A DNA stretch of 64,000 nucleotides from Vulcanimicrobiota bacterium (GTDB lineage: Bacteria; Vulcanimicrobiota; Vulcanimicrobiia; Vulcanimicrobiales; Vulcanimicrobiaceae): contig CAWGBN010000008.1 of assembly GCA_963820825.1 (NCBI GenBank), forward strand, positions 192,001 through 256,000, read 5' to 3'. How positions within the stretch are numbered: the stretch's first letter is position 1; each line of letters opens with the position of its first letter. The notes beneath the pieces are model-generated. The model saw only the letters and a list, made by a program, of their open reading frames with translations. It did no database searches and was not told the DNA's origin. Below, piece by piece: positions 4,079 through 32,746 of the stretch. The position numbers and the translations under genes are program-made.

Positions 4079-5875
4079 TTAGCCTTCGGCGGGCGCCGGG
4101 CCTGCCGCGGGTCGCCAGAGACGGCGTCCGATCACGAGGAGCCCGACGACCGCCGCCGCGGCGACCGCGCTCCAGACTAGACCTTGCGCCGGGCGGCCGT
4201 AGACGAAGGCGCCGGCCGCGAAGAGCGCGCCGTAGACCGAGGCTAGGCCGAGCACCCACCCGGCAAGCGCGAGCGTCATCGAATCGGGTGAGGCCGGCAG
4301 ATCGCACTCGCGGCGAATCTTCGCCCACCCGGGACCCGCCGGACGGACGCGCGCGTAGAACGAGGCGAGCACGCTGCGCTCGACCGGCGGCGTGCAGTAC
4401 GTTACCGCGATCCACACGACGGTGGTCACGGCGATGGTCGTCAAGAGCACGGTCGTCGTCGCGGCGGTGTGACCGAGTTTGGCGGAGACGAAGAAGGCGA
4501 CTGAGACGACGAACGACGAGAGCATCGCGCTGACCTCGCTCCACGCGTTGATCCGCCACCAGAACCAGCGCAATAAGTAGATCAAGCCCGTTCCCGCTCC
4601 GATCGAGAGCAGCAGGTTGAAAGCATTCTTCGCGTTGTCGAGCGCGAGCGTGAAGAGCACGCCGAGCGCCATCAACAGCGCGGTGACCAGCCGTCCGGCA
4701 AAGACCAGCTCGCGTTGGGTGGAGTTCGGACGAATGAAGCGCTGGTAGAAATCGTGCACGAGATACGAGGTGCCCCAGTTGAGATGGGTCTCGATCGTCG
4801 AGCGATAGGCGGCGAAGATTCCCGCGACCATGAAGCCCGCGAATCCGGCGGGCAAGTACACCAGCATCGCCGGATAGGCGATGTCGTTGCCGATCAAGTT
4901 CGGCGCCACGCCGGGAAAGCGCAGTTGAATATCGTGCAGCGTCGGATAGACGATCGTCGAGGCGAGAGCGACGACGATCCACGGCCACGGCCGCAGTGCG
5001 TAGTGCATCACCTGAAAGGCGAAGGTGCCGAAGAGCGCATCCGATTCCGTCTTCGCGGCGAGCATGCGCTGCGCGACGTAGCTGCCGCCGCCCGGTTCCG
5101 CGCCGGGATACCAGACCGACCACCAGACCACCGTGAGCGGGATGACGAAGATGCCTAGCGCCGTCGGCCAGTCTTTGAAGTTCGGTAATATCGCCAGCGC
5201 GCTCGGATTGGCGCGCGTGAAATGAGCGATGAGGCCGTGCAGACCGCCGACGCCGGGCGCGTGGATCGCGAAGTAGGCCGCGGCGAACGCCGAGGTTATC
5301 GTGATGCAGAACTGGATCGTGTCCGTCACCATGACGCCCCAGAGTCCCGCCGTCGCGGCAAAGATGATGGGCACGACGACCGAGATCGCGAGCGTCTCGG
5401 CGCGCGGCCAGCCGAAGAGAACGCCGGCAATCTTCACCAACGCCAAGTTGACCGTTGCGATGATCCAGCAGTTGAAGAATAGGCCGAGATAGAGCGCGCG
5501 AAAGCCGCGCACGAACGATGCCGCGGGCCCGGCGTAGCGCAGCTCGTAGAACTCGAGATCGGTCAGAACGTTCGAACGGCGCCAGAGCCGCGCGTAAAAG
5601 AAGACCGTCGCCATACCGGTGAGCAGGAACGACCACCAGACCCAGTTCTCGGCGACGCCCCCGTCGCGCACCAGATTGGTGACGAGGTTCGGCGTATCGG
5701 TCGAGAAGGTCGTGGCGACGAGCGATATCCCGATGAGCCACCACGGTGCCGCGCGGCCGGCCGCAAAGAACTCGGTGATGTTGCGCCCGGCTCGCCGCGC
5801 CAGCACGATCGCCGGCACGAAGCTCACGCCCAAGGAAACGACGACGATAACCCAGTCGAGCGTCGTTAAGTGCAC
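4079..5875 (-). CDS. sodium:solute symporter (SSS) family transporter
   Basis: EFFAAGRAAPWWLIGISLVATTFS, GLWGVMVTDTIQF and YVAQRMLAAK motifs; many transmembrane helices. Confidence 0.9.
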   Translation of the reverse strand: MHLTTLDWVIVVVSLGVSFVPAIVLARRAGRNITEFFAAGRAAPWWLIGISLVATTFSTDTPNLVTNLVRDGGVAENWVWWSFLLTGMATVFFYARLWRRSNVLTDLEFYELRYAGPAASFVRGFRALYLGLFFNCWIIATVNLALVKIAGVLFGWPRAETLAISVVVPIIFAATAGLWGVMVTDTIQFCITITSAFAAAYFAIHAPGVGGLHGLIAHFTRANPSALAILPNFKDWPTALGIFVIPLTVVWWSVWYPGAEPGGGSYVAQRMLAAKTESDALFGTFAFQVMHYALRPWPWIVVALASTIVYPTLHDIQLRFPGVAPNLIGNDIAYPAMLVYLPAGFAGFMVAGIFAAYRSTIETHLNWGTSYLVHDFYQRFIRPNSTQRELVFAGRLVTALLMALGVLFTLALDNAKNAFNLLLSIGAGTGLIYLLRWFWWRINAWSEVSAMLSSFVVSVAFFVSAKLGHTAATTTVLLTTIAVTTVVWIAVTYCTPPVERSVLASFYARVRPAGPGWAKIRRECDLPASPDSMTLALAGWVLGLASVYGALFAAGAFVYGRPAQGLVWSAVAAAAVVGLLVIGRRLWRPAAGPAPAEG

Positions 5876-7920
5876 GCTAGCGCGTTCGGTTCGTCCTCTG
5901 CGATGACCTCGGCCGGGGCGAGTGCGATCTCGTTGGGAAGCTCGCCGTAGGCGTAGACGCTCACGCGAATGCCCGAGCGCTGCAAGAAATCGGCGAGCAC
6001 GGGACGCAGCGATGCGGTGCAGACGACCGCGGCGCGTTCGCGCGGCACTTCAGCAGCATACGCTTCGATGCGGGCGCGCAGGGCGAGCGCCGTTGCGGGG
6101 TCGAGCCCCTCCGCTCCATGACCGCACCACGCTGCAACGAGCCTTCGTTCGAACGGCGCCTCGAAGATCACCGGCTCGAGCCGGACGAGCCCGCGGCGGC
6201 GTAACAGGTCCGGTACGATCGCGCGCCGCGCGGCCTCGGCGAGCTCTTGCGGATCGGCCGTCCGCGCCTCGAGCATTGCTTCGAGCACCGCGACGGGATC
6301 GCGCGGCCACGCGCACTCGCGCAAGAGCAGAGCGAAGGCGCGATGCACCGATCCGAACGGCAGGGCCTCGCCGCCGACTTCCTTGATCAGGGCGGGCACG
6401 GTCGCGCGCAGGTGCTCGAGCAGCGTGTGGAGCTCTTGCCGGCCGACGAGCTCGGCGGCGTGCGTTCGCGCGATCTCGGCCAAATGCGACCCGAGCACCG
6501 AGATCGGATCGAAGACGAGCGCGCCCGCATTGCTCGCGCGCTCGCGCCCCGAGGGTTGGATCCACGCCGCCGGCAATCCGTAGACGGGCTCGCGCTCGAT
6601 TCGCGCGTTGAAATGCGCGAGGATCGCTTCGTCTGCGACGGCCAGGAGCCGATCGAGATCGAGCCTGCCGGCGCCTTCCAGACGGTCCCGCACGCGGATT
6701 CCGTAGGTGCGCGGATCGCGTGCGAGATCGTCGCGGAGGCGAACGCCGGGAAGCACGACGCCGATGTCCGCTGCAAGTGCGCGACGCACCTCGCCGATGC
6801 GATCGAGTAAAGCATCGGCAAGGGGTTGTGCGAGAAGCAGTGCGAGATCGGCACCGATCTCGATTGCGATCGAATCGACGCCGACGAGGCCGAGTGCGAG
6901 CTCGGGACGCCGCATCGCGTGACGCTTCGCGCGCTCGCGCGCGCCGATCGTCTCCTCTTCCCGCCGGCGGCGTTGCCGTTGCGCGGCATGAGCGACCGCG
7001 AACGCACCGGCCCCGAGAACCACGAAGAGCGGCCGCGGCAGAGCGGGAACGAGCGCGAGTGCAAGCAGGAGCGCGCCGGCGCTGCGCAGCGCATCGGGGC
7101 GTGCGAGCAGCTGTGAGGCGAGGTCGGCTCCCAACGCGCCGTCGGAAGCGACTCGCGTGACCATCATCCCCATCGCCGTCGAGATGAGAAACGCGGGCAG
7201 CGTCGTGACGAGCGCGTTGCCGATGGAGAGCAGCGCGAAGGTGTCGAGCGCGTCGAGCGGTGAGAGCGCGTGATAGGCGATACCGACGATCACGCCGCCG
7301 CAGAGATTGAGCGCCACGATCACGAGCGCGGCGACCGCATCGCCCTTGACGAACTTTCCGGCCCCGTCCATCGCGCCGTAGAAGTCCGCCTCCCGCTGCA
7401 CGGCCTCTCGCTTGCGCCGCGCGCCTTCGCCGTCGAGCACGCCGGCATGAATGTCGGCGTCGATCGCCATCTGTTTTCCCGGCATCGCATCGAGCGTGAA
7501 GCGTGCCGCAACCTCCGCGACGCGCTGCGAGCCGCTTGCAATGACGACGAACTGAATCGTCACCAAGATCGAGAAGACGATGAGCCCGACGACCAAGTTT
7601 CCGTGGACGACAAATGCGCCGAAGGCCGGAATGATCGCGCCGACCGCGCCCGGCGTCGCACCTGAGGTCAGAATGAGGCGCGTCGCCGAAACGTCGAGCG
7701 AGAGCCGAAAGAGCGTCGCGACAAGCAGCGCGGGTGCGAAGGCCGAAAACTCGAGCGGATCGTCGACGGTCACCGAGAGCAGCAGCACGAGCGACGAGCC
7801 GAAGACGTTGACCCCCAAGAGCACGTCGAGCAGCCATGGCGGCAGCGGAACGATCAGAATTCCGACGATCGCCAACAGCAGCGCCGCAAAGGCGTAGACC
7901 GCCCGCCTCTTCGCGTTCAC
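5866..7920 (-). CDS. flhA: flagellar/T3SS export gate protein FlhA
   Basis: RVAEVAARFTLDAMPGKQMAIDAD and FYGAMDGAGKFVKGDA motifs; start trimmed to GTG 7920, which overlaps the flhB stop (GTGA). Confidence 0.93.
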   Translation of the reverse strand: MNAKRRAVYAFAALLLAIVGILIVPLPPWLLDVLLGVNVFGSSLVLLLSVTVDDPLEFSAFAPALLVATLFRLSLDVSATRLILTSGATPGAVGAIIPAFGAFVVHGNLVVGLIVFSILVTIQFVVIASGSQRVAEVAARFTLDAMPGKQMAIDADIHAGVLDGEGARRKREAVQREADFYGAMDGAGKFVKGDAVAALVIVALNLCGGVIVGIAYHALSPLDALDTFALLSIGNALVTTLPAFLISTAMGMMVTRVASDGALGADLASQLLARPDALRSAGALLLALALVPALPRPLFVVLGAGAFAVAHAAQRQRRRREEETIGARERAKRHAMRRPELALGLVGVDSIAIEIGADLALLLAQPLADALLDRIGEVRRALAADIGVVLPGVRLRDDLARDPRTYGIRVRDRLEGAGRLDLDRLLAVADEAILAHFNARIEREPVYGLPAAWIQPSGRERASNAGALVFDPISVLGSHLAEIARTHAAELVGRQELHTLLEHLRATVPALIKEVGGEALPFGSVHRAFALLLRECAWPRDPVAVLEAMLEARTADPQELAEAARRAIVPDLLRRRGLVRLEPVIFEAPFERRLVAAWCGHGAEGLDPATALALRARIEAYAAEVPRERAAVVCTASLRPVLADFLQRSGIRVSVYAYGELPNEIALAPAEVIAEDEPNALACT

Positions 7921-8927
7921 GCTTCCGACGCGTTCGCTCGCGAAAGGGTCGCGACGACTTCGGCAACGGCTACGAAATGAATCGCCGGAATCGGTTCGCC
8001 GGTCCGCCCGTCGCGGAAGAGCGCGCGAGCCAGCACGACGTCCTCGACGACCGGAATGCGGTATCGTTCCGCGAGCGCGCGCACGTGCAGCGCGGCCGCC
8101 TCCGCGGCGCGCGCCAGCACGCGCGGCACGGGAACCGCCGGCGGCCGGTATTCGAGCGCGACGGCGACGTGCTGCGGGTTCGTTACGACGAACGACGCCT
8201 CTTTGAGCCGGCCGATCCCGCCGCGCAGCAACGCACGATGCAGCGCGCGCCGGCGCCCGCGCGCGATCGCATCGCCCTCTTCTTCTTTCGCCTCGCGTTT
8301 GCGCTCCTCGAAGCTCATTCGCAGATTGCGCAGCCAGGCGCGCCGTGCCGCCGCATACTCGCCGACGGCGAAGCAGAATCCGACCGTGCACGCGGCCACC
8401 GCTACCTCGCGCGCCGCGGCCCAGGCCGTCGCCGCGACGTCTCCGACCGACGACGCCTGCAACGACGCCGCGCAGCTCCACGCGACGAACGGCGTCATCG
8501 CCGCGCTCGCACAGACGAACGCAAGCGCCGCTCGCAGCGAATGCGCGAGCGTTTCGCGAGAGAGAATTCGCTTGACGCCTTCGACCGGATTCAACCGCTC
8601 GAGTTTTACGGCGATCGAAAGTGCGGCAAGGCCGCCGTTCTGAGCGAGGTTTCCGAGCGCACCCGCCAAGGCGGCGGCGCCGACGGGTAAGCAGGCTACG
8701 GCAAGGATCAGCGCGCTTGCCGGGGTCGCTCGCCCGGCGAAACCGGCGACGAATGCATTGCTCGCCGCGGCGGCAAGCACCGGGGCAGTCGCCATCGCGG
8801 TCAAGGCCGCCGCGGCGAATGCGAGATTCGCCGCGAGCTCGCTCGAACGTGCGACGTTACCCTCGCGCAGCGCCTTGGCAATCCGGCGCGGCGTCGCCTC
8901 GAACGGTTTCTCTGCGGTATCGCTCAC
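7917..8927 (-). CDS. flhB: flagellar export switch protein FlhB
   Basis: EKPFEATPRRIAKALREGNVARSSEL, LERLNPVEG, MSFEERKREAKEEEGD and VVTNPQHVAVALEY (NPTH-equivalent); GTG 8927 overlaps the fliR stop. Confidence 0.92.
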   Translation of the reverse strand: MSDTAEKPFEATPRRIAKALREGNVARSSELAANLAFAAAALTAMATAPVLAAAASNAFVAGFAGRATPASALILAVACLPVGAAALAGALGNLAQNGGLAALSIAVKLERLNPVEGVKRILSRETLAHSLRAALAFVCASAAMTPFVAWSCAASLQASSVGDVAATAWAAAREVAVAACTVGFCFAVGEYAAARRAWLRNLRMSFEERKREAKEEEGDAIARGRRRALHRALLRGGIGRLKEASFVVTNPQHVAVALEYRPPAVPVPRVLARAAEAAALHVRALAERYRIPVVEDVVLARALFRDGRTGEPIPAIHFVAVAEVVATLSRANASEA

Positions 8928-9628
8928 GGAATTTCCAACAACGGCGAAGGCAAGCGTTGCGTGACGACCGGAACCGCGATCGCGGTCGCGATCAGCGCGG
9001 CCGCGAATGCCAGCGGAAAGGCCAGCGTGAAGCTGCCGAAGCGGGGGATCACGCGCGACAGGGCGCCGAGCGCGATCTGCACGACGAAGGCCAGCGCGAT
9101 CGCCGGCGCGGCAACCTGCAGTGCGACGAGCGCAATCGTCGATGCAAATGCCGCCGCGTACGCATGCCATCCCGCCGGACGCATCTCGGCAGCGAGCGGA
9201 ATGCGAGCGAAGCTCTCGCTAAAGCCCAGCAGCACGCTGCGATAGGCGCCTGAGAGAAAGAATCCGCCGGTGAACGCCAGCGACCAGACGCGGCCGAAAC
9301 CGCTCGGCGCGACGAGTTCCAGGCTCGGCGCGATCGCCTTCACCCCGACGTAATCGTCGACGACACGGCCGCCGGCATAGGCTGCATCGTAGATCAGCGA
9401 AGCCGTCATGCCGATCGCGCCGCCTACGAGAGACTCTAGCAGCAGCGCCGCCACGATCGTCGCGCCGTCCACTCCCTTCGCTGCCTTGCCGATGCCCGGC
9501 AGAATCGCGCCGGCAAGCGCCAGCGCAAAGCCCGCGCGAAGCGGTGCCGGTACGCTCGGATGCGAGAATCCGGGCGCGCGAAAGACGAAACCCGCGCACC
9601 GGGCGAAGACGAGCAGCCCGGTTACCAT
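8924..9628 (-). CDS. fliR: flagellar export protein FliR
   Basis: FARCAGFVFRAPGFS and GALSRVIPRF pattern; hydrophobic; lies between fliQ and flhB. Confidence 0.85.
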   Translation of the reverse strand: MVTGLLVFARCAGFVFRAPGFSHPSVPAPLRAGFALALAGAILPGIGKAAKGVDGATIVAALLLESLVGGAIGMTASLIYDAAYAGGRVVDDYVGVKAIAPSLELVAPSGFGRVWSLAFTGGFFLSGAYRSVLLGFSESFARIPLAAEMRPAGWHAYAAAFASTIALVALQVAAPAIALAFVVQIALGALSRVIPRFGSFTLAFPLAFAAALIATAIAVPVVTQRLPSPLLEIP

Positions 9629-9891
9629 CCGCTATCGATCGTCGGAATCTCCGCGATCGCGCGATCGAAGAGCGCGCCGAGCAGGTGCATCGCGCCGGGC
9701 CCGAAGAGCGCAATCATCAGACCGACCGCAACGATCTTCGGAAGGAGCGTCAGCGTCTGCTCCTGCACTTGAGTCGCCGCCTGCACGACGGCGATCGCCG
9801 TTCCCACTGCAGCGGCGACGGCCAGCATCGGCAGCGCAATGGTCGCGGTCGTGATCAGCGCATCGTGCAGTAAGCCGCTGAGGACGTCCAC
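9622..9891 (-). CDS. fliQ: flagellar export protein FliQ
   Basis: VVQAATQVQEQTLTLLPKI motif; 89 aa. Confidence 0.93.
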   Translation of the reverse strand: MDVLSGLLHDALITTATIALPMLAVAAAVGTAIAVVQAATQVQEQTLTLLPKIVAVGLMIALFGPGAMHLLGALFDRAIAEIPTIDSGW

Positions 9892-9925
9892 GCCTCAACG
9901 GTAGCGGTGCGCCGTTACGCGCGCG

Positions 9926-10837
9926 TTACCGGCTTGTTATTGCGCCGGAATCGGCAAAGGCCGGGCGCCAGGCGCTCGCGGCCAAGAGCGACGAGACGAT
10001 CGCCCTCGTCGCCGGCGAGCGATTGAGCGTATAAAAATGAATTCCCGGAACGCCGGCCTGGAGCAACGCGAGTACCTGCATGGAAGCGTACGCGACGCCG
10101 AGATCTTCCACCGCCTTATCGTCTCCCTTGCGCGACTCCATCTCCACACGCAGTTTCGGCGGAATGCTCGCACCGCAGACGGCGACGAAACGCTCGATCT
10201 GGGCGAAGTTGGTGATCGGCATCAAACCGGGAAGAACCGGCACCTCGATCCCCGCGCTTCGCGCCCGCCGGGCAAACTCCAAGAAGTTGGCGTTATCGAA
10301 AAAGAGCTGCGAAACGAGAAAATCGGCGCCGGCATCGGCCTTCTGCTTGAGATGCAGCAAGTCGTCGTCGAGCGATGCCGCCTCGGGATGCTTCTCCGGA
10401 TAGCAAGCCGCGCCGATGCAGAAATCGTAGTTGCGGCGCAGCATCGAGATCAGTTCGCTCGCGTGCGCGAAGCCGCCCGGAGTCTGCACGAACGGTCTCC
10501 CCGTTGGAGGATCTCCGCGCAGCGCGAGCACGTTCTCGATGCCGGCACGCGCCAAGTCGTCGAAGAGCGCGCGCAGCTCGCCGCGATCGGCACCGATGCA
10601 AGTGACGTGCGCGACGACCGTCAGACCGATCTGCTGCTGAATCTCCTTCGCAAGTGCGACCGTGCGCGCTCGAGTCGAGCCGCCGGCACCGTAGGTGATC
10701 GAGACGAACGCGGGCCGCAGGGGCCGCAGCGCGGCGATCGTGGTAAAGAGCCGGCGCGAACCTTCGTCGTCTCGGGGCGGAAAGAACTCGAACGAGAAGA
10801 ACGGCCGCTGCGTCGCAAGCGCTTCACTAATGCGCAT
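9926..10837 (-). CDS. metF: 5,10-methylenetetrahydrofolate reductase
   Basis: FSFEFFPP, FVSITYGAGGS, LALRGDPP, YPEKHPE and IHFYTLN motifs; AAGGAG RBS before ATG 10837. Confidence 0.95.
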   Translation of the reverse strand: MRISEALATQRPFFSFEFFPPRDDEGSRRLFTTIAALRPLRPAFVSITYGAGGSTRARTVALAKEIQQQIGLTVVAHVTCIGADRGELRALFDDLARAGIENVLALRGDPPTGRPFVQTPGGFAHASELISMLRRNYDFCIGAACYPEKHPEAASLDDDLLHLKQKADAGADFLVSQLFFDNANFLEFARRARSAGIEVPVLPGLMPITNFAQIERFVAVCGASIPPKLRVEMESRKGDDKAVEDLGVAYASMQVLALLQAGVPGIHFYTLNRSPATRAIVSSLLAASAWRPAFADSGAITSR

Positions 10838-10848
10838 CGGCTCACTCC

Positions 10849-11502: not shown

Positions 11503-11512
11503 GGAGAAATCC

Positions 11513-11779
11513 TTACAGCGCGAGCAACTCGGTGACGCGCAAGGCAAAACGCTCTTCGACCGCGACGATCTCACCGCGCGCGATCGGCCGGTCGTTGACG
11601 AGCAGCTCGACCGGCTGACTGATCGGGCGATCGAGTTCGACGATCGAGCCCGTACCGAGTCTCAGCACCTCGGCGACCGACATGCTGCAGGTGCCGAGCC
11701 GAACGCTGAGGTGCAGCGGCACGTGCATGAGCAAGCCGATGTTCTCGCGCGCGTCCGGCGGCTTCGCGTCTCCCGCCAT
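11513..11779 (-). CDS. fliN: flagellar C-ring protein FliN (SpoA domain)
   Basis: VPLHLSVRLG...LGTGSIVELDR...VNDRPIARGEIVAVEERFALRV. Confidence 0.9.
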   Translation of the reverse strand: MAGDAKPPDARENIGLLMHVPLHLSVRLGTCSMSVAEVLRLGTGSIVELDRPISQPVELLVNDRPIARGEIVAVEERFALRVTELLAL

Positions 11780-11785
11780 CGCCGA

Positions 11786-12568
11786 CTAGATCGCTTCGCG
11801 AACGGCGTCGACGAAGAACGCGAATCGTCCGTTGCGCGCGCCGCCGCTTCCACGCGCGATCCGCCGGCCATGTGCCGTCAGTTCTCCCCGCTGGAAGGCC
11901 GTGGGATCGATCGGCATCGTCGCTCCGACGGTCAGGCGGGTAATCGCTTCCGCTTGCGTCGTACCGAGATCGAGTGTCGCGCGAACCGGCAGCTCGACGG
12001 CGCTGAGGTGGGCGGCTTCGAGGCAGCCCCGCGTCTCGGGCGACGGATCGCGCGAGAGCGCGATGCCGATGCGCGCACGCACCGGCTCTTCGACCGAGAG
12101 CTCGAAGTAGGTGACAAAGCCGTCGATTGCGGCGGCGCGTTCGATCGCGCGGCCATCGCGCGTTCCGCAGACGGCGCTGAAGTTCGTTGCGATCCCGGCG
12201 ACGAGCCGATCCAACACGTCACATTCGATCGGCGAGAGCCCGCGCTCGACCGGTGCTGCCGGCGATTCGCCGAAGAGCGCCGACGCGAGCGCGCCGGCAT
12301 CGCAGGCGCGAAGGACGATCGCCGCATCGGCAACCTCACCGCGCACGCGATAGAGACGCGCATTGCAAAGAATCGCGCGCCACGCCTGCGGCGCAGGGAT
12401 GAGCGGCGCGAAGAGCCGCATGGCAACGGCTACGCCGAGCAGGGAGCTCAAGGTTTCGCGAACGCCGTTGGCTACGACGCATGCAGCGCTGATCGGTAAC
12501 GACGAACGCGTTTCGAATCGGGCTTCTTTCAAGCGTCTTCCGGAAGGGGGAAAGCCCAGCGACTTCAT
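11786..12568 (-). CDS. divergent FliM-like switch protein (C-terminal SpoA domain)
   Basis: RGLSPIE middle-domain motif; C-terminal LPVRATLDLG...IARGSGGARNGRFAF SpoA-like segment; positioned before fliN. Confidence 0.65.
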   Translation of the reverse strand: MKSLGFPPSGRRLKEARFETRSSLPISAACVVANGVRETLSSLLGVAVAMRLFAPLIPAPQAWRAILCNARLYRVRGEVADAAIVLRACDAGALASALFGESPAAPVERGLSPIECDVLDRLVAGIATNFSAVCGTRDGRAIERAAAIDGFVTYFELSVEEPVRARIGIALSRDPSPETRGCLEAAHLSAVELPVRATLDLGTTQAEAITRLTVGATMPIDPTAFQRGELTAHGRRIARGSGGARNGRFAFFVDAVREAI

Positions 12569-13287
12569 TTGAGCAGATCCATCGTGGTCTTGCCGAGGTG
12601 CACTTTGGCGGCTTCGGCGGCTTGCAAGGCATCGAAGGCCAAGTACGCTTCCTTCAATCGCACGAGGCTTTCGTCAACGTCGATCCGGCTGCGTTCGCGT
12701 CGCATCGGTACGAGCGATCCAAAGGTTGCGTCGCCGGCGAGCCCGACCTCGGCGCTGACGCCGGCCGGGGCGACGGACCGGCCGCCTTCGCTCGTCTGCA
12801 GACGCGTACCGGCGGGGAATCGCGCGAGTACGATTCGACCGGCGACGACGCGCTGCAGCTCTCTCGCTCCACTGCGCGGATCGACGATCTCCCGCCGGTA
12901 AGTTAGGCTGCCGTCGGCTTCGATCCCGACGTCGCGAACGCGCCCCAGTGCAACGTCGACCGGATCGACCGCGAGCTCGTCGAGTGCGCCGCCGGGCGCC
13001 CGTAGGCCGAGAATCGGAGTGCCGTTGCTGCCGACTAACCGTCCGCCGTGCAGCGCGAAGGACCCGTCGCGGGTGTACGATCGCTGCCCGCGTTCGTCGG
13101 CGGTGATAAAGTACGCGCCTTCGGGAGCGGCGACGGCGAGCGGCTCGAGCGTGAAATCGGAGAGAGGCGCGGGCGTGGCAACGTCGTCGTGCATCGGCAG
13201 CGCACCCGGCGTGTAGGCACGACGAACGTCGGCGGCGCGTTCGGCGATTCGATCGAGCGCGGCGCTCAGCGTCGAGTTCAGGAACAT
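12565..13287 (-). CDS. flagellar rod/hook family protein (FlgF/FlgG/FlgE-like, divergent)
   Basis: AYTPG N-terminus, SYTRDGSFAL..GRLVGSNGTPILG, and C-terminal ERSRIDVDESLV resembling LExSNVDxxxEM; 240 aa. Confidence 0.75.
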   Translation of the reverse strand: MFLNSTLSAALDRIAERAADVRRAYTPGALPMHDDVATPAPLSDFTLEPLAVAAPEGAYFITADERGQRSYTRDGSFALHGGRLVGSNGTPILGLRAPGGALDELAVDPVDVALGRVRDVGIEADGSLTYRREIVDPRSGARELQRVVAGRIVLARFPAGTRLQTSEGGRSVAPAGVSAEVGLAGDATFGSLVPMRRERSRIDVDESLVRLKEAYLAFDALQAAEAAKVHLGKTTMDLLK

Positions 13288-13877
13288 GCGACCGCTCCGA
13301 TCGCGCAGAACTCAACGCCTCGAGCCGCGAGCGCGATCCGCGCCTGCGAGAGCGCACGCGCGACGACGTTGCGGAGCTCCGGGCGGCAGATGGCGAGCAG
13401 CGTCGTTCGCCCAGCGCTCGTCTGCAAGATGACGTGGACGCGAGCGCTGCCGCGCCCGAGCGAAAACGTCGCCCTCTTCGGGTTGCCGCCGGATGCGCTG
13501 AATGCGCGCTCGATTCGTTCGGCGAGCCGTCCGCGGCCGGCGCTGCGGTGGAGCGGAGTTGCGCTCTCGCGGCCGGGAGCACTCGCGATACGCTTCGTTC
13601 TTATCGCAGGCGGCCGAAGGATCTCTGAATTGCGGCGCAACGATGGCGCCGCGTTTTCGCGCCGGGCCGCGAGCGGATGCGCGCGCGCGCTTGCGGCCGT
13701 CGGGACGGCTCTCGGTTTTGCCGATTGCGAAGCCATGCCCAGCGCCGAATACCACGCCTGTGAGAGCGCGCGCCGGTCGATCGCGCCCAGCGGCGCCGCC
13801 AAGATGCTGACCTCGAGCTGATGCGTCATCATGGAACCGATCATCGCAACGGCATATGAGCGACCGCTCAACGTCAC
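13278..13877 (-). CDS. hypothetical protein, possible FliK-like length-control protein
   Basis: Low-complexity linker followed by C-terminal ATFSLGRGSARVHVILQ...PELRNVVARALSQARIALAARGV, resembling the FliK/T3S4 fold; occupies the fliK slot; GTGA-coupled to fliI. Confidence 0.5.
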   Translation of the reverse strand: MTLSGRSYAVAMIGSMMTHQLEVSILAAPLGAIDRRALSQAWYSALGMASQSAKPRAVPTAASARAHPLAARRENAAPSLRRNSEILRPPAIRTKRIASAPGRESATPLHRSAGRGRLAERIERAFSASGGNPKRATFSLGRGSARVHVILQTSAGRTTLLAICRPELRNVVARALSQARIALAARGVEFCAIGAVACS

Positions 13878-14917
13878 GTTGCCGAGTTGAGAACGAGGAG
13901 CTCGGCGATCGCTCGCAACTCCGCGACGGTCTCGACATCAGCCGATGCGAGGCGGCTCTGGCGAAGGAAGGCTTCGACGCGGTTCTCCGCCGCGATCGCC
14001 GCCGCAATCGAACGACCCTGCGGAATGATGCCGAGTGAACGCGCATCCTCAACGCGATCGAGCGCCGCAATGGCTGCGCGCACGAGCATGGCATCGGTTT
14101 GGTGCGCTTCGCCGACGACCGCATCCATCGTGCGGCTCGCGCTGGCCGCAACGTCGACGGCCGGGAACCTTCCGGCGTCGGCGAGGCGCGCGCAGAGCGC
14201 GATATGTCCGTCCAAGAGCGAGCGCGCCGCCTCGCTCACCGGATCGCGTGCGTCGCCATCTTGAATCACCGTCGCAACGAGCGTGATCGAACCGCCGGAG
14301 AGTTCGCCGGCAACTTCTATGAGACGCGCCATCTCCGCGAAGACGCTGGGCGGATAGCCGCCGCGGCCCGCGCTCTCGCCGGCCGCGATCCCGATCTCGC
14401 GCAGCGCCGCTGCAAACCGTGCCAGACTGTCGAGGATGAGCAGCACGTGCAGTCCCCGTTCGCGCAGCGCGCCGGCATGTGCGAAAGCGACGTGAGCGGC
14501 CCGTACGCGTTCGTGCGCCCCGCGATCGCTGGTGGCGCAGACGACGGTCGTTCGCCGGTCGCAGCCTTCGATCCAAAGCTGTGCTTCGCGGCCGCGTTCA
14601 CCGACGAGCGCGACGACGACGGCATCCGCGGCACATCCCGCGACGATCGTTTCGATCAACGTCGTCTTTCCGGCACCCGGCGGCCCGAAGATGCCGACGC
14701 GCGCGCCGCGTCCGATCGTCAGCAACGCGTCGACGACGCGGATCCCGGTCCAGAGTGGTACGGCGATCGGCGCACGCTGCGCGGGCGCCGGAGGGTGAAG
14801 CTCGACGGCGACGGTGCGCCCCTGCAAGGGCTTACCGCCGTCGAGCGGCAGACCCCACGCATCGATCGCTCGTCCGAACGCACAGGTCCCTAAAGCAAGG
14901 CGGTGCGGCGCGGTCAC
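13874..14917 (-). CDS. fliI: flagellar export ATPase FliI (lacks N-terminal domain)
   Basis: GIFGPPGAGKTT, VGERGRE, LDSLARFA, GYPPSVF and RSLLDGHI motifs; 347 aa; GTG overlaps the fliH stop. Confidence 0.88.
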   Translation of the reverse strand: MTAPHRLALGTCAFGRAIDAWGLPLDGGKPLQGRTVAVELHPPAPAQRAPIAVPLWTGIRVVDALLTIGRGARVGIFGPPGAGKTTLIETIVAGCAADAVVVALVGERGREAQLWIEGCDRRTTVVCATSDRGAHERVRAAHVAFAHAGALRERGLHVLLILDSLARFAAALREIGIAAGESAGRGGYPPSVFAEMARLIEVAGELSGGSITLVATVIQDGDARDPVSEAARSLLDGHIALCARLADAGRFPAVDVAASASRTMDAVVGEAHQTDAMLVRAAIAALDRVEDARSLGIIPQGRSIAAAIAAENRVEAFLRQSRLASADVETVAELRAIAELLVLNSAT

Positions 14918-15387
14918 GCCAACGCGGCGAGCGCCGCGTCGAGGCGCGCGGAGAGCGTTACGTCGATCGTTCCGCTTCGCAACTGGAGCGCAACGTCGCC
15001 CCGCTCCAACGTGCGGTCGGCAACTCGTTCGAACTCAATCTCGTGCAGCGCGGCGAGGTCGTCGGGATGGACGCGGACCGCGAGCACGTTCTCGCATTCG
15101 AACCGATTGCAGGCCGCCGCGACGATCGCGCGGATCTCCACCGGCCGCAGCTCGAGCTCACGCGCGAGCACGTCGCGCGCGATGCGCGGTAAGAGCTCTT
15201 CGATAGCCGCTTCGAGCGCGTCGGCAAGAGCGGCGCGAAAGCGGCGCGCCGCGCGGATCGCCTCGTCCCGATCGGTCGCGTCGGGGACGGACGCCAGGCC
15301 GTCCCGTTGCGGCGACACCGGCTCGACTGCCGGATCGCTTGGCGTCGGACGCAAGAACGCTGCCAGCGGGACGAAGGGGCTAGACAT
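14914..15387 (-). CDS. fliH: FliH/SctL-like assembly protein (short)
   Basis: VRVHPDDL and DRTLERGDVALQLRSGTIDVTL C-terminal FliH motifs; ATG 15387 overlaps the fliF end. Confidence 0.75.
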   Translation of the reverse strand: MSSPFVPLAAFLRPTPSDPAVEPVSPQRDGLASVPDATDRDEAIRAARRFRAALADALEAAIEELLPRIARDVLARELELRPVEIRAIVAAACNRFECENVLAVRVHPDDLAALHEIEFERVADRTLERGDVALQLRSGTIDVTLSARLDAALAALA

Positions 15388-16852
15388 GCCGCCGTAGCAG
15401 TTCGTCGGGGTTCGAGAGCAGAGGCGTGTGCCGGCGCTGCATCCGGTTGACGATCGCTTCGCGCTCGTGCGGCGGATAGAGCTCGAGAACGGCCGTCGCC
15501 GTCGCCGCGGGCAGCGCGCTGATGATCGCCGCTGCGGCGTGCGGCGGCTCCTCTTCCAGCATGCTGCGTACGCGCGCCGGCGGGAAACCGGCGGCGGCCT
15601 TCGTCGCACGATCGACGGCCGCGCGCTCGACGAACGCCTGCACGAACGCAACTGCCGCCGGTAACGCAATCTTCGCGGCCGCAACGAATCCCGCGGCGAC
15701 GATGATCGCCGGAAAGAGCGCGACGAATGCACCGTAGATCAGCCACCGGATCCTTGCGCGCGCGACCGGCGCATGGCGAAAGGCAACGGCCTCGACGGCA
15801 AGCGTGTCGCCGCGCCGGGCGTCGTAACCGAGCGCGGCAGCGGCGAGTTCGCGCACTCTGGCCAGATCCAACTCGCGCGCGCGATCGACGAAGACCGCCG
15901 CCGAGAGCCGTTTTACTCCTCCGGGCGGCGCAATCGAAAGCGCCTCGCGCGTCTCGTCCCCGCGGTCTTCGGCCTCGTCGAGTTGACGGTATCGCTTCCC
16001 GTTTGCGTCATAGCTTTCGCTGCGGCGAGTCCGGACCACCGCCGTCCCGCTCCCGGGTGCGCGGGTCACGTCGCGTTGGGATCTTCGCGCGACCTCGTAT
16101 TCCGGGCGGACCCGCACGATTGCAGCTCCCTCACCGAACGCGGCATCGAGCGCCGATTGCAGCGATCGCTGCAGATCGGCCGGGTCGTCGCTCGTTGCGG
16201 GATCGTCGCCGAGTGCGACGCCGCGGTCGTCCAGAATTGCGACGCGTGCCGGTTCGAGTTGCGGAACGCTCGCCGCGACGAAGGACCGGATACCCGCAAT
16301 CGCCTGATGCGAGAGCCGCGCACCGGGATGCAGGCGCAACCGGACCGACGCAGTCGCATCCCTGCTCGATTCGTCGGCAAACTCCGCCGGCTTGGCCGGC
16401 GCGACGATGACTCGCGCGTCGTCGACGCCGTCGATACCGCGCAATCCGGCTTCGATATCGCCGGCAAGGCCGGCTCGCGTCTGCGCTTCGATGACGGCCT
16501 GCGGCGTGAGCGCACCGACGTTCGCCAGCGCCTCAACGGTACTCGATAGATGCGCGTGCGGAACGCCGGCCAGCGATAGGCGGAGTAAGAGATCGGCGCG
16601 ACGCCGAGCATCGACGACGACGTTATCGGTCGTCGGCGTAAACGGAACGTTCCACGCTGCGAGACGCTCCTCGACCTCCGTTCGCTGTTCGGGATAGAGC
16701 GGCGACGAGAAGAGCGCGACTCTCGTCTGATGTCCGAGGGCGAGCACAGCGATGGCAAGGACGCATGCGACGCAGAGCGCGCCACTGGTGACGTAGCGGA
16801 CGGCTCGCGGCAACGTATTCCAACGAGCGAGGAGCGGCAGTACGCCGTTCAT
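15380..16852 (-). CDS. fliF: MS-ring protein FliF with fused C-terminal FliG-middle-like domain
   Basis: N-terminal TM, LAGDIEAGLRGIDGVDDARV and ATASVRLRL (YscJ/FliF), VKRLSAAVFVD, GYDARRGDTL, second TM, then EEEPPHAAAAIISALP...AVLELYPPHEREAIVNRM. Confidence 0.82.
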   Translation of the reverse strand: MNGVLPLLARWNTLPRAVRYVTSGALCVACVLAIAVLALGHQTRVALFSSPLYPEQRTEVEERLAAWNVPFTPTTDNVVVDARRRADLLLRLSLAGVPHAHLSSTVEALANVGALTPQAVIEAQTRAGLAGDIEAGLRGIDGVDDARVIVAPAKPAEFADESSRDATASVRLRLHPGARLSHQAIAGIRSFVAASVPQLEPARVAILDDRGVALGDDPATSDDPADLQRSLQSALDAAFGEGAAIVRVRPEYEVARRSQRDVTRAPGSGTAVVRTRRSESYDANGKRYRQLDEAEDRGDETREALSIAPPGGVKRLSAAVFVDRARELDLARVRELAAAALGYDARRGDTLAVEAVAFRHAPVARARIRWLIYGAFVALFPAIIVAAGFVAAAKIALPAAVAFVQAFVERAAVDRATKAAAGFPPARVRSMLEEEPPHAAAAIISALPAATATAVLELYPPHEREAIVNRMQRRHTPLLSNPDELLRRHV

Positions 16853-16863
16853 CCGCCCGGTCC

Positions 16864-17127
16864 TTAGACTTGCATGTTCAAGACGGACTGCACGGATTGA
16901 ACGACCCGCTGCGCCGTCGAGGTCGCGATTGCGAGCGCGACGTCGGCCTGGGCGCGCTCGTAGACGGCGTCCTGCAGCGTTCCGTGGCCATAGGCGAAGC
17001 CTTCCTCGGCGCGGTTGGCGCCGGTCAGCAGAGCGTCGGCGGCGTCGAGCGCTCGGGCAAAATCGTCCGCTCCGACGGTTCGGGCCGCCGTCGCCGGAAC
17101 GTCGGGGACGAACGGTTCGACTCTCAC
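16864..17127 (-). CDS. fliE: flagellar hook-basal body protein FliE
   Basis: C-terminal AQADVALAIA...VQSVLNMQV pattern; 87 aa; between flgC and fliF. Confidence 0.85.
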   Translation of the reverse strand: MRVEPFVPDVPATAARTVGADDFARALDAADALLTGANRAEEGFAYGHGTLQDAVYERAQADVALAIATSTAQRVVQSVQSVLNMQV

Positions 17128-17453
17128 AGTCGCTCCAAGTCGAGCGTCTTTTCGGCCAGTCTCTTGCCGACGTCGAAGATCGAGGCATCCGACTCATACG
17201 CGCGCGACGCGTTCATCACGGCGATCATCTCGGTGAGGATGTCGACGTTTCTTCCGCTCTCGCTGCGCGTGCCGACGAAGTCGACGCGGGCGTCGTCGGG
17301 GTCGCCCTCGATGCGAAAGAGCGGAATCAATCGGGAATACTCGGCGTTCGGGCCTGCCGCCTCGGCGGCGGCGACGTTGCGAGCAGCCACGTCCAGCGCC
17401 GCTCGCTGCGCATCCATTCCGGCCGCCGCGGCGTCGAGCAGCTCGATCCTCAT
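17124..17453 (-). CDS. flgC: flagellar basal-body rod protein FlgC (short)
   Basis: AAAGMDAQRAALDVAARNVAAAE and NVDILTEMIAVMNASRAYE motifs; 109 aa. Confidence 0.85.
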   Translation of the reverse strand: MRIELLDAAAAGMDAQRAALDVAARNVAAAEAAGPNAEYSRLIPLFRIEGDPDDARVDFVGTRSESGRNVDILTEMIAVMNASRAYESDASIFDVGKRLAEKTLDLERL

Positions 17454-17668
17454 TTTGCGACCGCCTTAATCTCTGCAAAGCGAGCGCGTTGCGCGGAGAG
17501 CAGCGCCTCGGTGAAGATCGCAGCTTGCGCCGTCGCCGCAAGCGCAGCGTCGGCGGAGCGGCCGGCGTTCTCGCCCGCATTGGCTCGGGCAACCGCGGCC
17601 TGCGCATCGTTGAGACGCGTCCGGGACGCCAAGAGTGCATCGCGCAGGGTATCACCGACGTCAAACAT
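17450..17668 (-). CDS. putative minimal FlgB-like rod protein (72 aa)
   Basis: First gene of the operon, ATGA-coupled to flgC; two helices resembling FlgB N- and C-termini (…ALLSAQRARFAEIKAVAK). Confidence 0.55.
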   Translation of the reverse strand: MFDVGDTLRDALLASRTRLNDAQAAVARANAGENAGRSADAALAATAQAAIFTEALLSAQRARFAEIKAVAK

Positions 17669-32452: not shown

Positions 32453-32746
32453 CTACGCGCGCGTCACCCGCAAGATCGTGCGGCCGACGACGAACGGCGC
32501 GCCGACCGCCAGCGGAACCGCTCCGACCACGGGCTTTCCGCCCAGGCGGGTACCGTTGCGGCTGCGCAGGTCGACGAGGCGTATCGAATCCGCCTCGATC
32601 TGAAGGCGGGCGTGCTCGCGGGAGACGTACCGGTCGAGCGCCAGGCAGGCTTCGGCAAGCGCATCGTCCCGGCCGATCGTGATCTCTCGCTCGAACGGCC
32701 AGGTCTTGCCGTCGAGCGGGCCGCTCAGCACTTCGAGCAGGTACAT
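32453..32746 (-). CDS. FHA domain protein
   Basis: IGRD...VSREHA...DLRSRNGT motif set. Confidence 0.85.
   Translation of the reverse strand: MYLLEVLSGPLDGKTWPFEREITIGRDDALAEACLALDRYVSREHARLQIEADSIRLVDLRSRNGTRLGGKPVVGAVPLAVGAPFVVGRTILRVTRA

Follow-up and report, generated by a model that had tools for sequence, protein, structure and literature searches.

A probable second, motor-less flagellar-type type III system in the Vulcanimicrobiota

Buchnera carries flagellar basal bodies that have no filament. It is non-motile and lacks flagellin, it keeps export and basal-body genes, and the basal bodies are thought to act in protein export. This is a single ancestral flagellum reduced in an endosymbiont, with FliG and the hook genes retained. 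The system described here differs: it is a paralog of the flagellum, it belongs to free-living bacteria and its FliG is replaced.

Two further systems are comparable. The 'needleless' type III secretion system (T3SS) of Myxococcales is proposed to descend from a flagellum–injectisome intermediate (Abby and Rocha 2012, PMC3459982; PMC12075869) and to translocate proteins or build a periplasmic structure (PMC3459982). The 2012 paper places these systems in the NF-T3SS clade and reports them to be without FlgBCDEK and FliE/G; like ours they occur in free-living bacteria and have no motility genes, secretin or external filament (PMC3459982). Unlike them, our system keeps FliE, FlgC and rod proteins, and its FlhA clusters with the flagellar ones, apart from the two Archangium sequences included in our tree. 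The other is a putative second, partial flagellar set in Legionella micdadei, L. fallonii and L. israelensis. Its genes specify a basal body, an export apparatus and a putative hook but neither flagellin nor FliD, and its authors do not decide between a T3SS and a second flagellum (PMC5655016). Legionella belongs to a different phylum, and we liken the two sets by description rather than by sequence. The portion of that account used here mentions no FliG loss, no fusion of FliF to a FliG middle domain (FliG_M) and no persistence past the main flagellum (PMC5655016).

The locus analysed here lies in a window (the whole stretch of DNA studied) of 64,000 nucleotides, from the 2.98-Mb, 85% complete assembly of a soil bacterium. 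The sequence confirms a flagellar-type export cluster at 5866–17668 on the minus strand. We consider it fairly probable that these genes encode the central parts of a second flagellar-type type III system, one that lacks a motor, is conserved across its class of the Vulcanimicrobiota (Eremiobacterota) and serves non-rotary export and rod building.

Layout and parts of the cluster

The minus strand carries all 15 genes listed in an earlier sequence-only reading, in the order and at the sizes it gave. The list was nevertheless incomplete, having overlooked metF between fliP and fliQ. The full order is flgB-like, flgC, fliE, fliF, fliH, fliI, FliK-like ruler, a 240-aa hook/rod gene, fliM, fliN, fliP, metF, fliQ, fliR, flhB, flhA. 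Junctions are mostly overlaps of 4–10 nt or gaps of at most 41 nt, and most of the proteins score below the NCBIfam equivalog cut-offs.

The axial parts come first. The 72-aa protein in the FlgB position (17450–17668) is a putative FlgB by position; it has no match among Pfam, NCBIfam or PDB profiles, so that the assignment is without family support, and the top named Atlas entry, FlgB at 0.86, counts as a lead only. Its orthologs at 13 loci are 63–72 aa long, with a dN/dS of 0.13–0.24. FlgC, the proximal rod protein (109 aa, 17124–17453), matches Flg_bbr_C (E 1.2e-5), scores 50.9 bits on the NCBIfam FlgC model (cut-off 102) and has a dN/dS of 0.06–0.16. FliE (87 aa, 16864–17127) matches its Pfam family at E 2.5e-6. 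The minimal hook/rod protein of the FlgE/F/G class (240 aa, 12565–13287; LlgE_F_G_D1, E 9.7e-7) sits where canonical operons of other classes have a short FlgE-like gene. The FliK/SctP-like ruler (13278–13877; likely start 13832, giving 184 aa) ends in a T3S4-like domain, modelled at a pLDDT of ~80–87; its top two Foldseek matches, to the SS domain of PscP and the C-domain of FliK, have E-values of 5e-3 and 0.07. Ruler orthologs have conserved N- and C-termini and a variable linker between them; the one at locus L102, in a family of the same order (f2), reaches E 8e-5 on Flg_hook, short of the Pfam cut-off.

The export gate set is complete: FliP (10849–11502; Pfam FliP, E 1.6e-71), FliQ (9622–9891; Bac_export_3, E 5.2e-20), FliR (8924–9628; Bac_export_1, E 2.4e-30), the switch protein FlhB (336 aa, 7917–8927; Bac_export_2, E 2.1e-69) and FlhA (684 aa, 5866–7920; FHIPEP, E 1.6e-188). 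The FlhB autocleavage site reads NPQH here; N, P and H are kept in 16 of 16 sequences, and the third position varies among T, Q, H and E. An FlhA match turns up in 195 of the phylum's 201 genomes and in 108 of 113 from the window's family (f1).

FliH (157 aa, 14914–15387; Pfam FliH, E 2.1e-10) has orthologs of 136–168 aa, and its stop codon is overlapped by the start of fliI. The FliI ATPase (13874–14917) matches ATP-synt_ab (E 3e-61) and T3SS_ATPase_C. At 347 aa, the size noted earlier, it lacks most of its N-terminal domain; this short form is confined to this genus and a few others and is not a trait of the whole system. Normally that domain contacts FliH and builds the collar of the hexamer, and its near-absence in the genus speaks against a working machine. 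All 16 reduced FliI sequences retain Walker A and GERGRE, and the Walker B pattern is matched in 14.

FliF, the MS-ring protein (490 aa, 15380–16852), matches YscJ_FliF and YscJ_FliF_C. Its C-terminus matches FliG_M (E 5e-6; 27.1 bits, cut-off 25), which bears out the proposal that FliG is reduced to a middle-domain-like fragment on FliF. This tail (residues ~430–475), which stands in for FliG, is the most conserved stretch of FliF, with 16 invariant positions, and can be aligned with the part where the FliG middle domain begins, which contains EHPQ. Its profile matches the C-termini of FliF-length proteins and, more weakly, ~340-aa proteins (the length expected of FliG) around residues 108–190. 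The tail occurs in 100 of the 113 f1 genomes, in 3 of 3 of f2 and in 0 of 69 genomes of other classes.

FliM (260 aa, 11786–12568) has a FliMN_C match and a model (pLDDT 82.5) whose top fold matches are Salmonella FliM chains (E ~1e-11). The absence of the CheY-binding N-terminal peptide, also proposed earlier, holds against the canonical FliM of a same-family genome, G136, which begins MSSLSQEEIDALI as the cluster FliM does not. FliN (88 aa, 11513–11779) matches FliMN_C (E 3.1e-25) and, at 92 bits, exceeds the NCBIfam fliN cut-off. A predicted complex of FliM with the FliF tail scored 0.55 against 0.09 for the best control, with at least 95% of contacts agreeing between runs and a partner pLDDT of at least 73. 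Of 157 solved complexes, 116 reach the mark for such predictions, as do 2 of 215 mismatched pairs; with values up to 0.60, only 18 of the 157 reach it, along with both mismatches. FliG–FliM complexes have already been solved, so the score may only mirror likeness, and it lends weak support to the predicted docking of FliF and FliM.

Kinship with flagella and injectisomes

The system had been proposed to be distinct from the injectisome, and FlhA agrees: it lies inside the flagellar clade and not with SctV, the branch to five SctV sequences measuring 1.01 (SH-aLRT 100%). The FliI tree takes no side: it puts cluster FliI, flagellar FliI and SctN in a three-way split and does not place the system inside flagellar FliI. 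FliI and FlhB score slightly higher on the NCBIfam Sct models (SctN, SctU) than on the flagellar ones.

With the canonical flagellum the system shares FlhA/B, FliP/Q/R, FliH/I, FliF, FliM/N, FliE, FlgC, FlgF/G-type rod proteins, a FliK-type ruler, a Bacillus-like operon order and the nesting of its FlhA. By contrast it lacks the FliG N and C domains, MotAB, FlgD, FlgK/L, FliC/D, FlgH/I/A and a che link, and has instead the FliG_M-like tail on FliF and a FliM without the CheY peptide. Against the canonical proteins of G136 most of the parts are much smaller: FliI 347 versus 440 aa, FliK-like 184 versus 561, hook/rod protein 240 versus 609 and FliN 88 versus 302. The likeness to injectisomes would lie in a non-rotating gate, the ATPase, a cytoplasmic platform of FliM/N type, the ruler and the switch. 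The axial parts, however, are flagellar rod proteins and not an SctF/SctI needle, and the cluster ORFs have no secretin-, SctD- or needle-type Pfam match.

Function, spread and competing explanations

On the reading we favour, FliF would dock FliM directly through its fused tail. If so, the FliM/FliN ring would be a static sorting platform, as in injectisomes, rather than a rotor. Lacking both a stator and the FliG C-domain, the machine should be unable to produce torque. It would export and assemble its own rod, perhaps with a short stub resembling a hook, its length gauged by the ruler, although the hook cap FlgD is missing and the stub may not form. Cleavage of FlhB at N-P, together with the T3S4 domain, would then probably switch it to cargo or to a sigma-linked regulatory factor. 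No outer-membrane component was found in the cluster, and export beyond the periplasm is unsupported. FliJ and FliO, from the relic of the canonical operon, probably serve it in trans.

The export machine is larger than the window cluster, as fliJ, fliO and a rod/sigma module lie outside. The module (rodX, a FlgG-like gene and a FliA-like sigma gene) is ~98 kb away on the same contig, where the rod genes encode a 119-aa protein and one like FlgG. Tracked by its FlgG-like gene, the module persists in 134 of 136 class genomes. In each of the five loci examined, from three families, rod genes are linked with the FliA/WhiG-like sigma gene, which at 121 bits falls short of its 189.6 cut-off. This linkage would fit a device that is regulatory or structural rather than effector-secreting: an anti-sigma export checkpoint for the sigma factor, or a periplasmic envelope rod. 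The cluster ORFs include no secretin, tip, translocon or candidate effector, in keeping with such a device. Yet no FlgM-like gene was identified, and the ruler and FlhB switch imply a second substrate class, without saying which. We hold this explanation to be unlikely, if worth keeping in view.

The cluster could also belong to a second true flagellum, forming its base and borrowing the canonical FliG, stators, hook cap and filament, and be merely orphaned where those were lost. The reduced system does coexist with a canonical flagellum in 37 of 136 genomes, and G136 carries it beside a full canonical one. Moreover, no genome has more than one FliJ or one FliO match above the Pfam cut-off, so that some sharing in trans is likely. 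But FliG_C is found in only 37 of the 136; the other 99, including all of family f3 (0 of 32), keep the system without a FliG torque domain, and the sampled members of the window's genus g1 have no FliG_C either (0 of 39). Flagellin exceeds the Pfam cut-off in at most 36 of 136, none in f3 and 0 of 39 in g1, where one of ten sub-cut-off matches, on examination, was Ala/Gln-rich and resembled an HlyD-type membrane-fusion protein. The FliF C-terminus that normally binds FliG-N carries the FliG_M-like tail instead, and FliM lacks its CheY peptide. We regard a second true flagellum as distinctly improbable.

The absence of motor and filament genes, first remarked for the window, extends to the genome. 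The assembly yielded no FliG_C, Flagellin_N or MotA, its sole MotA_ExbB match being an ExbB beside two ExbD genes; nor was a FliG torque domain, stator, flagellin, FlgD, FlgK/L or FlgH/I found genome-wide here or in same-genus relatives 91–98% complete. A cultured family member has no flagella and no flagellin gene in the part of its description used here (PMC9758169), and its gene table lists fliN (PMC9758169, supplement S8). The reported lack of fliJ and fliO, by contrast, holds only within the window: both are on another contig (C7) of the assembly. Between purA and a Vgb-lyase gene only these two survive, both here and in each of the four other genomes examined from the genus, and in a flagellin-less genome of another genus (G011) a fliJ–fliO relic adjoins purA. 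The locus that houses the canonical operon in a relative is assembled here and contains only fliJ and fliO. The canonical flagellar operon has been deleted in this genome, with these two genes its only survivors, and the reduced system has outlived it. FliO is found in 97 of 100 f1 genomes and FliJ in 82; no FliJ was found in several of the flagellum-less genera that keep the cluster (g24, 0 of 6; g3, 0 of 2; g8, 0 of 2).

The reduced system, which coexists with a full flagellum in some related genera, is a separate, fast-evolving paralog and not a decayed remnant of the cell's flagellum. The earlier idea of streamlining stands as to conserved reduction, but what was reduced is a second system and not the cell's own flagellum in place.

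A bleaker explanation is that the cluster no longer has a function and is the relic of a flagellar operon, duplicated or ancestral, in slow decay and held in place only by an essential gene. That gene would be metF (methylenetetrahydrofolate reductase, 303 aa, 9926–10837; Pfam MTHFR, E 1.5e-91), a housekeeping gene inside the operon, the only copy in the assembly and adjacent to fliP in 15 of 15 same-family loci. The proteins are miniaturised and FliI is truncated. Five of 44 g1 genomes have lost the T3SS genes around an intact metF, with differing deletion edges, and one further g1 genome gave no FlhA match. Some of the patchy loss named earlier as a refuter thus does occur; dN/dS near 1, named with it, was not seen. 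The four deletion genomes among those sampled for FliJ and FliO all keep both genes, which weakens the argument for dependence on them. Elsewhere rod242 is broken in two sampled genomes (G173, G154), the FlhA match is missing in 3 of 5 g7 and 1 of 2 g19 genomes, and it is weak in the single g13 genome (E 6.7e-7). Against decay, dN/dS is 0.06–0.41 in all 15 T3SS genes, with open frames, as expected of purifying selection. Synteny and small protein sizes are conserved at 20 loci in three families diverged to 47–60% FlhA identity, so the view that the shrunken parts are kept rather than randomly decayed is upheld. The cluster also persists in f2 and f3, where metF lies outside it, the unlinked rod/sigma module is retained, and the FliF tail is nearly invariant. 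We think a relic very improbable.

Finally, that motor and filament genes sit in the unassembled 15% of an 85% complete genome is scarcely credible, given that FliG_C and above-cut-off flagellin are absent from all 39 g1 genomes of 91–98% completeness and that the canonical-operon locus is itself assembled.

The motor-less export machine that we favour resembles a natural example of a flagellum turned into a non-swimming export device.

A second system beside the canonical flagellum

The minus strand of the window carries, from 5866 to 17668, a tightly packed operon whose genes mostly overlap at their junctions by 4–10 nt. It opens with a 72-aa protein in the FlgB position, which has no family match, followed by FlgC (109 aa), FliE (87 aa), FliF (490 aa), FliH (157 aa) and FliI (347 aa). 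Next come a ruler-like protein of ~184 aa, also without a family match, a 240-aa protein of the FlgE/F/G class, a FliM-like protein of 260 aa, FliN (88 aa) and FliP. The last four genes encode, in this order, FliQ, FliR, FlhB (336 aa) and FlhA (684 aa). The sequence-only reading gave the genes and their sizes correctly throughout, but it overlooked metF (9926–10837, minus strand; 303 aa, MTHFR), which lies between fliP and fliQ. This is the sole MTHFR gene of the assembly, and it is embedded at the same point in all 15 loci examined from the window's family (f1).

The remaining window is ordinary chromosome, with SecDF, a sodium:solute symporter, a tRNA synthetase, pantothenate genes and the like. 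The symporter gene (4079–5875, minus strand) shares 10 nt with the end of flhA, and secD and secF come after it; this junction is conserved in relatives from the window's genus (g1), and in other genera secD comes directly after flhA. The symporter gene may be co-transcribed with the cluster. Adjoining the pantothenate genes is a 118-aa FHA-domain protein (32453–32809, minus strand) that matches the Yop-YscD cytoplasmic domain (PF16697, E 2.3e-12).

The operon had been read as a streamlined, flagellum-derived export system. The cluster is a second system and not a decayed first flagellum. Wherever flagellin and FliG are present, the genome encodes two FlhA proteins, one with 59–74% and the other with 39–41% identity to the FlhA of the window. 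In G136, an f1 genome with both systems, the second FlhA sits within a complete canonical set: FliF (558 aa), FliG (360 aa, with N, M and C domains), FliI (440 aa), FliJ, FliK (561 aa), FlgD, FlgE (609 aa), MotA, MotB, FliM (330 aa), FliN/Y, FliO, FliP, FliQ, FliR, FlhB, che genes, FliC, FlgK, FlgL, FlgH, FlgI and FlgA. On that chromosome, 0.6 Mb separate this set from the reduced cluster.

The site of the canonical operon can be recognized in the source genome. It shares its flanks with G136, namely a phosphoribosyltransferase, GH125 and purA on one side and a Vgb-lyase on the other, and it holds only fliJ (148 aa) and fliO (contig C7:72733-73645; fetched locus L125:8731-9658). The same purA-fliJ-fliO-lyase order occurs in 4/4 further g1 genomes examined, and a fliJ-fliO relic beside purA is also found in the flagellin-less genome G011, from another genus in which six of seven sampled members are flagellated. 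Of the canonical operon, nothing but fliJ and fliO has survived in the source genome.

Two further observations concern other parts of this family's genomes. Contig C5 of the source genome (~200566-201280; L127 ~6567-7281, minus strand) carries a FliA-like sigma gene with 57% identity to a relative's canonical FliA, aligning in three pieces that are each offset by 2 nt; it is either a frameshifted pseudogene or the product of assembly indels. The 1.9-Mb f1 genome G077 (contigs C18 and C62) has two reduced-type FlhA genes (55% identity each), two FliF tails, two FlgG-like rod genes and one FliG_C, and may hold a duplicated reduced system.

Parts kept and parts missing

The absence of motility genes that had been noted in the window extends to the whole source assembly (2.98 Mb, 9 contigs, estimated completeness 85%). 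Neither FliG_C (PF01706), the torque-generating domain, nor Flagellin_N was found there. The only MotA_ExbB gene adjoins two ExbD genes, and the MotA and MotB of an f1 relative gave no tblastn match. When 35 flagellar and chemotaxis proteins encoded at the canonical loci of G136 were used as tblastn queries against the source genome, 21 were unmatched, including FliG, MotA, MotB, FliM, FliK, the hook and filament proteins FlgD, FlgK, FlgL and FliC, then FlgH, FlgI and FlgA, and the chemotaxis proteins CheR and CheC. These absences are not due to incomplete assembly, because FliG_C is found in 0/39 g1 genomes at 91–98% completeness and likewise in 0/32 genomes of the third family, f3, of the same class. 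Across the class, FliG_C occurs in 37/136 sampled genomes, always as one full-length copy adjoining the canonical operon, and flagellin above the cut-off in 36/136.

Two candidates examined were rejected as flagellar parts. Sub-threshold Flagellin_N matches occur in ten g1 genomes; the one examined, in G097, is an Ala/Gln-rich protein of ~425 aa that we read as an HlyD-type membrane-fusion protein. Its ortholog in the source genome covers the site of a weak FliJ match on contig C2. An SRP54-domain protein of the relative, considered as FlhF, has a 74%-identical match in the source genome; this match has no flagellar gene near it and is more probably FtsY.

The only FliG-like piece in the source genome is a FliG_M-like tail of ~45 residues on FliF, in line with the middle-domain-like fragment already noted on this MS-ring protein. 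The last ~60 residues of FliF, past the second membrane helix, match FliG_M and MgtE_N, and by eye the tail aligns with the start of the middle domain of the canonical G136 FliG, including the EHPQ segment. It is the most conserved part of FliF: residues 435–470 contain 16 invariant positions across 15 sequences with overall identities down to 42%. A profile of the tail searched against 1.84 billion representative proteins gave 106 matches at E 0.001 or better. The strong ones are proteins of ~464–512 aa matched at the extreme C-terminus; the weak ones are proteins of ~335–350 aa, a size that would fit FliG, and their matches fall around residues 108–190. At E 1e-6 or better the tail is found in 100/113 genomes of f1, 3/3 of the second family of the same order (f2), 1/15 of f3 and 0/69 from other classes of the phylum. 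By eye, one f3 FliF bears a diverged version of the tail. Canonical FliF has a different C-terminus, and in the other classes of the phylum a separate, full FliG gene follows FliF.

The proposed partner of the tail is FliM. The predicted structure of the FliM-like protein (pLDDT 82.5, from 15 sequences) matches full-length Salmonella FliM chains (E ~1e-11) as well as crystal structures of the FliM middle domain. Its N-terminus lacks the LSQEEIDAL-type peptide present in canonical f1 FliM, in agreement with the earlier observation that the CheY-binding peptide is missing. A predicted complex of FliM with FliF residues 405–490 scored 0.55 against 0.09 for the best control, with contact agreement of at least 95% and partner pLDDT of at least 73. 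The mark used for such predictions is reached by 116/157 solved complexes and 2/215 mismatches; at scores of 0.60 or below it is reached by just 18/157 solved complexes, plus both mismatches. FliG–FliM structures have already been solved, and for that reason the prediction is a likeness at most; it lends weak support to the idea that FliM may bind the FliF tail.

The export apparatus is well preserved. All five proteins of the flagellar core gate, FlhA, FlhB, FliP, FliQ and FliR, are present with strong Pfam matches. FliH and FliI in the cluster, together with FliJ and FliO on C7, complete the ATPase complex set by genes. Source FliJ scores 61.9 bits, above the NCBIfam cut-off; source FliO scores 31 bits against a Pfam cut-off of 22, and 37.6 bits against the NCBIfam cut-off of 55.25, which it does not reach. 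FliJ occurs in 88/136 class genomes (82/100 in f1, 38/39 in g1) and FliO in 118/136 (97/100 in f1), in each case with never more than one match above the Pfam cut-off per genome. We infer that both are used by the reduced system.

Axial parts are found in and outside the window. FliF, FliE, FlgC and two rod-type proteins encoded elsewhere on the contig each match their families. One of the latter (C8:296054-296782) has 242 aa and combines Flg_bb_rod, D1 and Flg_bbr_C domains; on NCBIfam it is FlgG-like at 179 bits, which is under the equivalog cut-off. Its gene is present in 134/136 class genomes at 44–91% identity, and the canonical FlgG of flagellated genomes is distinct from it (~41–43%). 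Immediately upstream lies the gene of a 119-aa mini rod protein (Flg_bb_rod and Flg_bbr_C), the G136 counterpart of which has 186 aa and a D1 domain. Downstream lies that of a sigma factor of 225 aa, for which NCBIfam gives FliA/WhiG as the best match (121 bits; cut-off 189.6). This rod-rod-sigma module is linked in 5/5 loci examined from f1, f2 and f3. The f3 and class tallies for FliJ, FliO and the 242-aa rod gene include the unpublished genomes G128, G203 and G210, used for counts only. Within the cluster, the 240-aa FlgE/F/G-class protein has a putative role as hook. The 72-aa FlgB-position protein has no match in Pfam or NCBIfam, and its family profile gave only chance-level matches against PDB sequences (SNARE-type Sso1/2, E 0.03 or worse). 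The ESM Atlas assigns the family mostly to Vulcanimicrobiota and gives FlgB (0.86) as its best named match, a lead only.

The ~184-aa protein is, with moderate confidence, a short ruler of the FliK/SctP type. Its N-terminus and its C-terminal domain are conserved, and a variable linker rich in Pro, Arg and Ala joins them; the predicted structure is poor as a whole (pLDDT 61) but good in the C-domain (~80–87). Foldseek ranks two substrate-switch domains highest, that of PscP (E 5e-3) and that of FliK (E 0.07), and the f2 ortholog matches Pfam Flg_hook at E 8e-5, under the cut-off. In a single relative, G097 (L113:7811-9094), the ruler and 240-aa hook/rod genes form one open frame of 427 aa with no intervening stop. 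FlhB keeps the N, P and H of its autocleavage site, NP(T/Q/H/E)H, in 16/16 reduced sequences; at the third position most genera have T, whereas g1 has Q, H or E. Walker A and GERGRE are likewise kept by FliI in 16/16 reduced sequences, and the Walker B pattern is matched in 14/16. The size of 347 aa initially reported for FliI is correct, but the truncation is not a general feature of the system: loss of the N-terminal domain is lineage-specific, affecting g1 and one or more further genera but not three other f1 genera, f2 or f3.

Ancestry, selection and loss

By FlhA, the reduced system groups with flagella. From 117 extracted FlhA sequences we dropped 5 that were short or contained stops, and used 62 of the remaining 112 (62 rows, 698 columns; quick search, LG+C20 PMSF, SH-aLRT supports only). 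The reduced FlhAs of f1, f2 and f3, with one MAG labelled 'proteobacterium', form one clade (100) on a long stem of 0.76, inside the flagellar clade (SH-aLRT 100). Its sister group (99) consists of FlhAs from other classes of the same phylum, which occupy canonical operons. The canonical f1 and f2 FlhAs cluster instead with Actinomycetota (83). The MAG in question, L004 ('uncultured proteobacterium'), nests within the f3 part of the clade, and its taxonomic label is probably wrong.

One alternative is that the reduced FlhA arose as a duplicate of the canonical FlhA within the class. When the reduced FlhAs and the canonical ones of f1/f2 were constrained to a single clade, the tree became 38 log-likelihood units worse, with an AU p of 0.064, so that this origin is disfavoured but not rejected. 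Membership of the sampled injectisome clade can be dismissed clearly, by FlhA and gene content: a branch of 1.01 (100) divides the flagellar FlhAs from five SctV, two Archangium, one Chlamydiales and one Lentisphaeria sequence, and the cluster ORFs have no Pfam match to the secretin SctC, the SctD ring, the SctF needle or the SctI inner rod. Whereas the axial parts of injectisomes are the SctF needle and SctI rod, those of the reduced system are of flagellar rod types. FlhA and gene content agree with the proposal of a machine distinct from the injectisome; FliI favours neither side. The FliI tree (36 rows, quick search, one partial row dropped) splits three ways without resolution, into SctN (95), the reduced clade (93) and flagellar FliI (98), the last including the canonical copies of f1 and of other classes.

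The system has been kept widely. Searches with the window proteins (tblastn against 20 fetched loci) showed the gene order to be shared by 15 f1 loci from 10 genera and one f2 locus. In f3 the system is divided between two separate loci: L163 has flgB-like, flgC, fliE, fliF, a probable fliH, a full-length fliI and an SLT transglycosylase, and L108 has a 157-aa ORF, a rod gene, fliM, fliN, fliP, fliQ, fliR, flhB and flhA, with secD adjoining. FliF was found in 5/5 f3 genomes searched, and FlhA in 195/201 genomes of the phylum and 108/113 of f1; the closest named relative's record is a Vulcanimicrobiaceae MAG with 65% FlhA identity. Ortholog sizes are 63–72 aa for the FlgB-position protein, 109–133 for FlgC, 86–95 for FliE, 479–494 for FliF (one outlier of 427), 136–168 for FliH, 223–242 for the rod protein, 250–273 for FliM and 84–98 for FliN. 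Against five g1 relatives, Nei-Gojobori dN/dS is 0.06–0.41 for all T3SS genes, not near 1 as decay would predict, and 0.05–0.22 for neighbouring housekeeping genes (dS 0.4–2.3; ratios against more distant relatives are near saturation).

Nevertheless, the reduced system is dispensable in some lineages, because g1 contains deletions and g7 and g19, two other genera, contain FlhA-less genomes. Just a 29–131-aa 3' stub of flhA is retained in 5/44 sampled g1 genomes. The edges of the deletions vary among these genomes, and in the four of the five loci that extend far enough (L170-L173) metF is intact beside stubs of fliP, fliQ and/or flhA. One further g1 genome has no FlhA match, yet has the FliF tail. 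FlhA matches are also missing from 3/5 g7 and 1/2 g19 genomes, and the single genome of genus g13 has a weak match only. Patchy loss in relatives had been named beforehand as a sign of decay; the low dN/dS and stable sizes speak against decay, although the cluster has indeed been deleted in those five g1 genomes. The genes fliJ, fliO and the rod gene are retained in 4/4 deletion genomes sampled of the five, the rod gene being broken in one; dependence of the system on fliJ and fliO is suggestive, not proven.

A proposed export machine

In the machine we propose, the MS ring would hold FliM and FliN directly through the FliF tail, forming a static sorting platform, and FliH, FliI and FliJ would feed the export gate. 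The machine would export and assemble FliE, the rod proteins and perhaps a short, ruler-measured stub of the 240-aa protein, after which FlhB and the ruler would switch specificity to a second, as yet hypothetical, class of substrate. The linked FliA-like sigma factor would suggest a flagellum-style coupling between export and transcription. Export reaching beyond the periplasm is unsupported because no outer-membrane part was identified. In other genera (L099:6422-8561 and L102:7482-9636), fliI and the ruler gene are separated by genes for an SLT lytic transglycosylase and for a protein of ~580 aa that has two aspartyl-protease domains; neither gene is present in the window or in its closest relative. 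The ~580-aa protein is a candidate substrate or accessory part.

According to the proposal of Abby and Rocha (PMC3459982), motility genes were lost and export was kept on the way to the injectisome, and a secretin was recruited afterwards. We consider it possible, rather than probable, that the reduced system shows the flagellum exapted a second time, independently, as a non-motile type III machine, and is a living analog of that hypothesized first step in which motility parts were lost before a secretin was recruited. FliG would have collapsed to a FliF tail anchoring a static FliM/FliN platform; the machine would have a periplasm-spanning rod and lineage-specific cargo, the aspartyl-protease-domain protein of other genera being one candidate; it would have been kept for the entire history of the class, with FliJ and FliO drawn from the remnants of the canonical operon.

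The kind of system is already known, from that proposal and from an uncharacterized second partial flagellar system lacking flagellin that is mentioned in the consulted sections of a Legionella review (PMC5655016). Neither this variant nor its FliF-FliG_M fusion, its persistence across the class or its relation to the canonical flagellum appears to have been described in the literature searched. In the portions of text retrieved on Eremiobacterota/WPS-2 flagella and on Vulcanimicrobi-/Eremiobacter- type III secretion we found nothing describing the reduced system, and those retrieved on FliF-FliG fusions covered engineered fusions only. The first cultured member of the phylum has, in the excerpted text of its description, neither flagella nor a flagellin gene and moves by type IV pili, and in the consulted part of its supplementary gene table fliN alone appears among the flagellar terms looked for (PMC9758169).

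With a cultured aflagellate member of the family in existence, architecture and cargo are directly testable. The FliF-FliG_M fusion would be a minimal natural way of docking a C-ring-like platform without a rotor. The origin of the injectisome from the flagellum has been argued mostly from phylogeny and, to our knowledge, few living examples exist of a flagellum that lacks motility but retains export. The reduced system provides a case of that first step that is natural, extends across a class and appears to be under selection, with flagellar rod proteins retained, and its relatives cover all the relevant states: both systems together, the reduced system alone and the recently deleted cluster.
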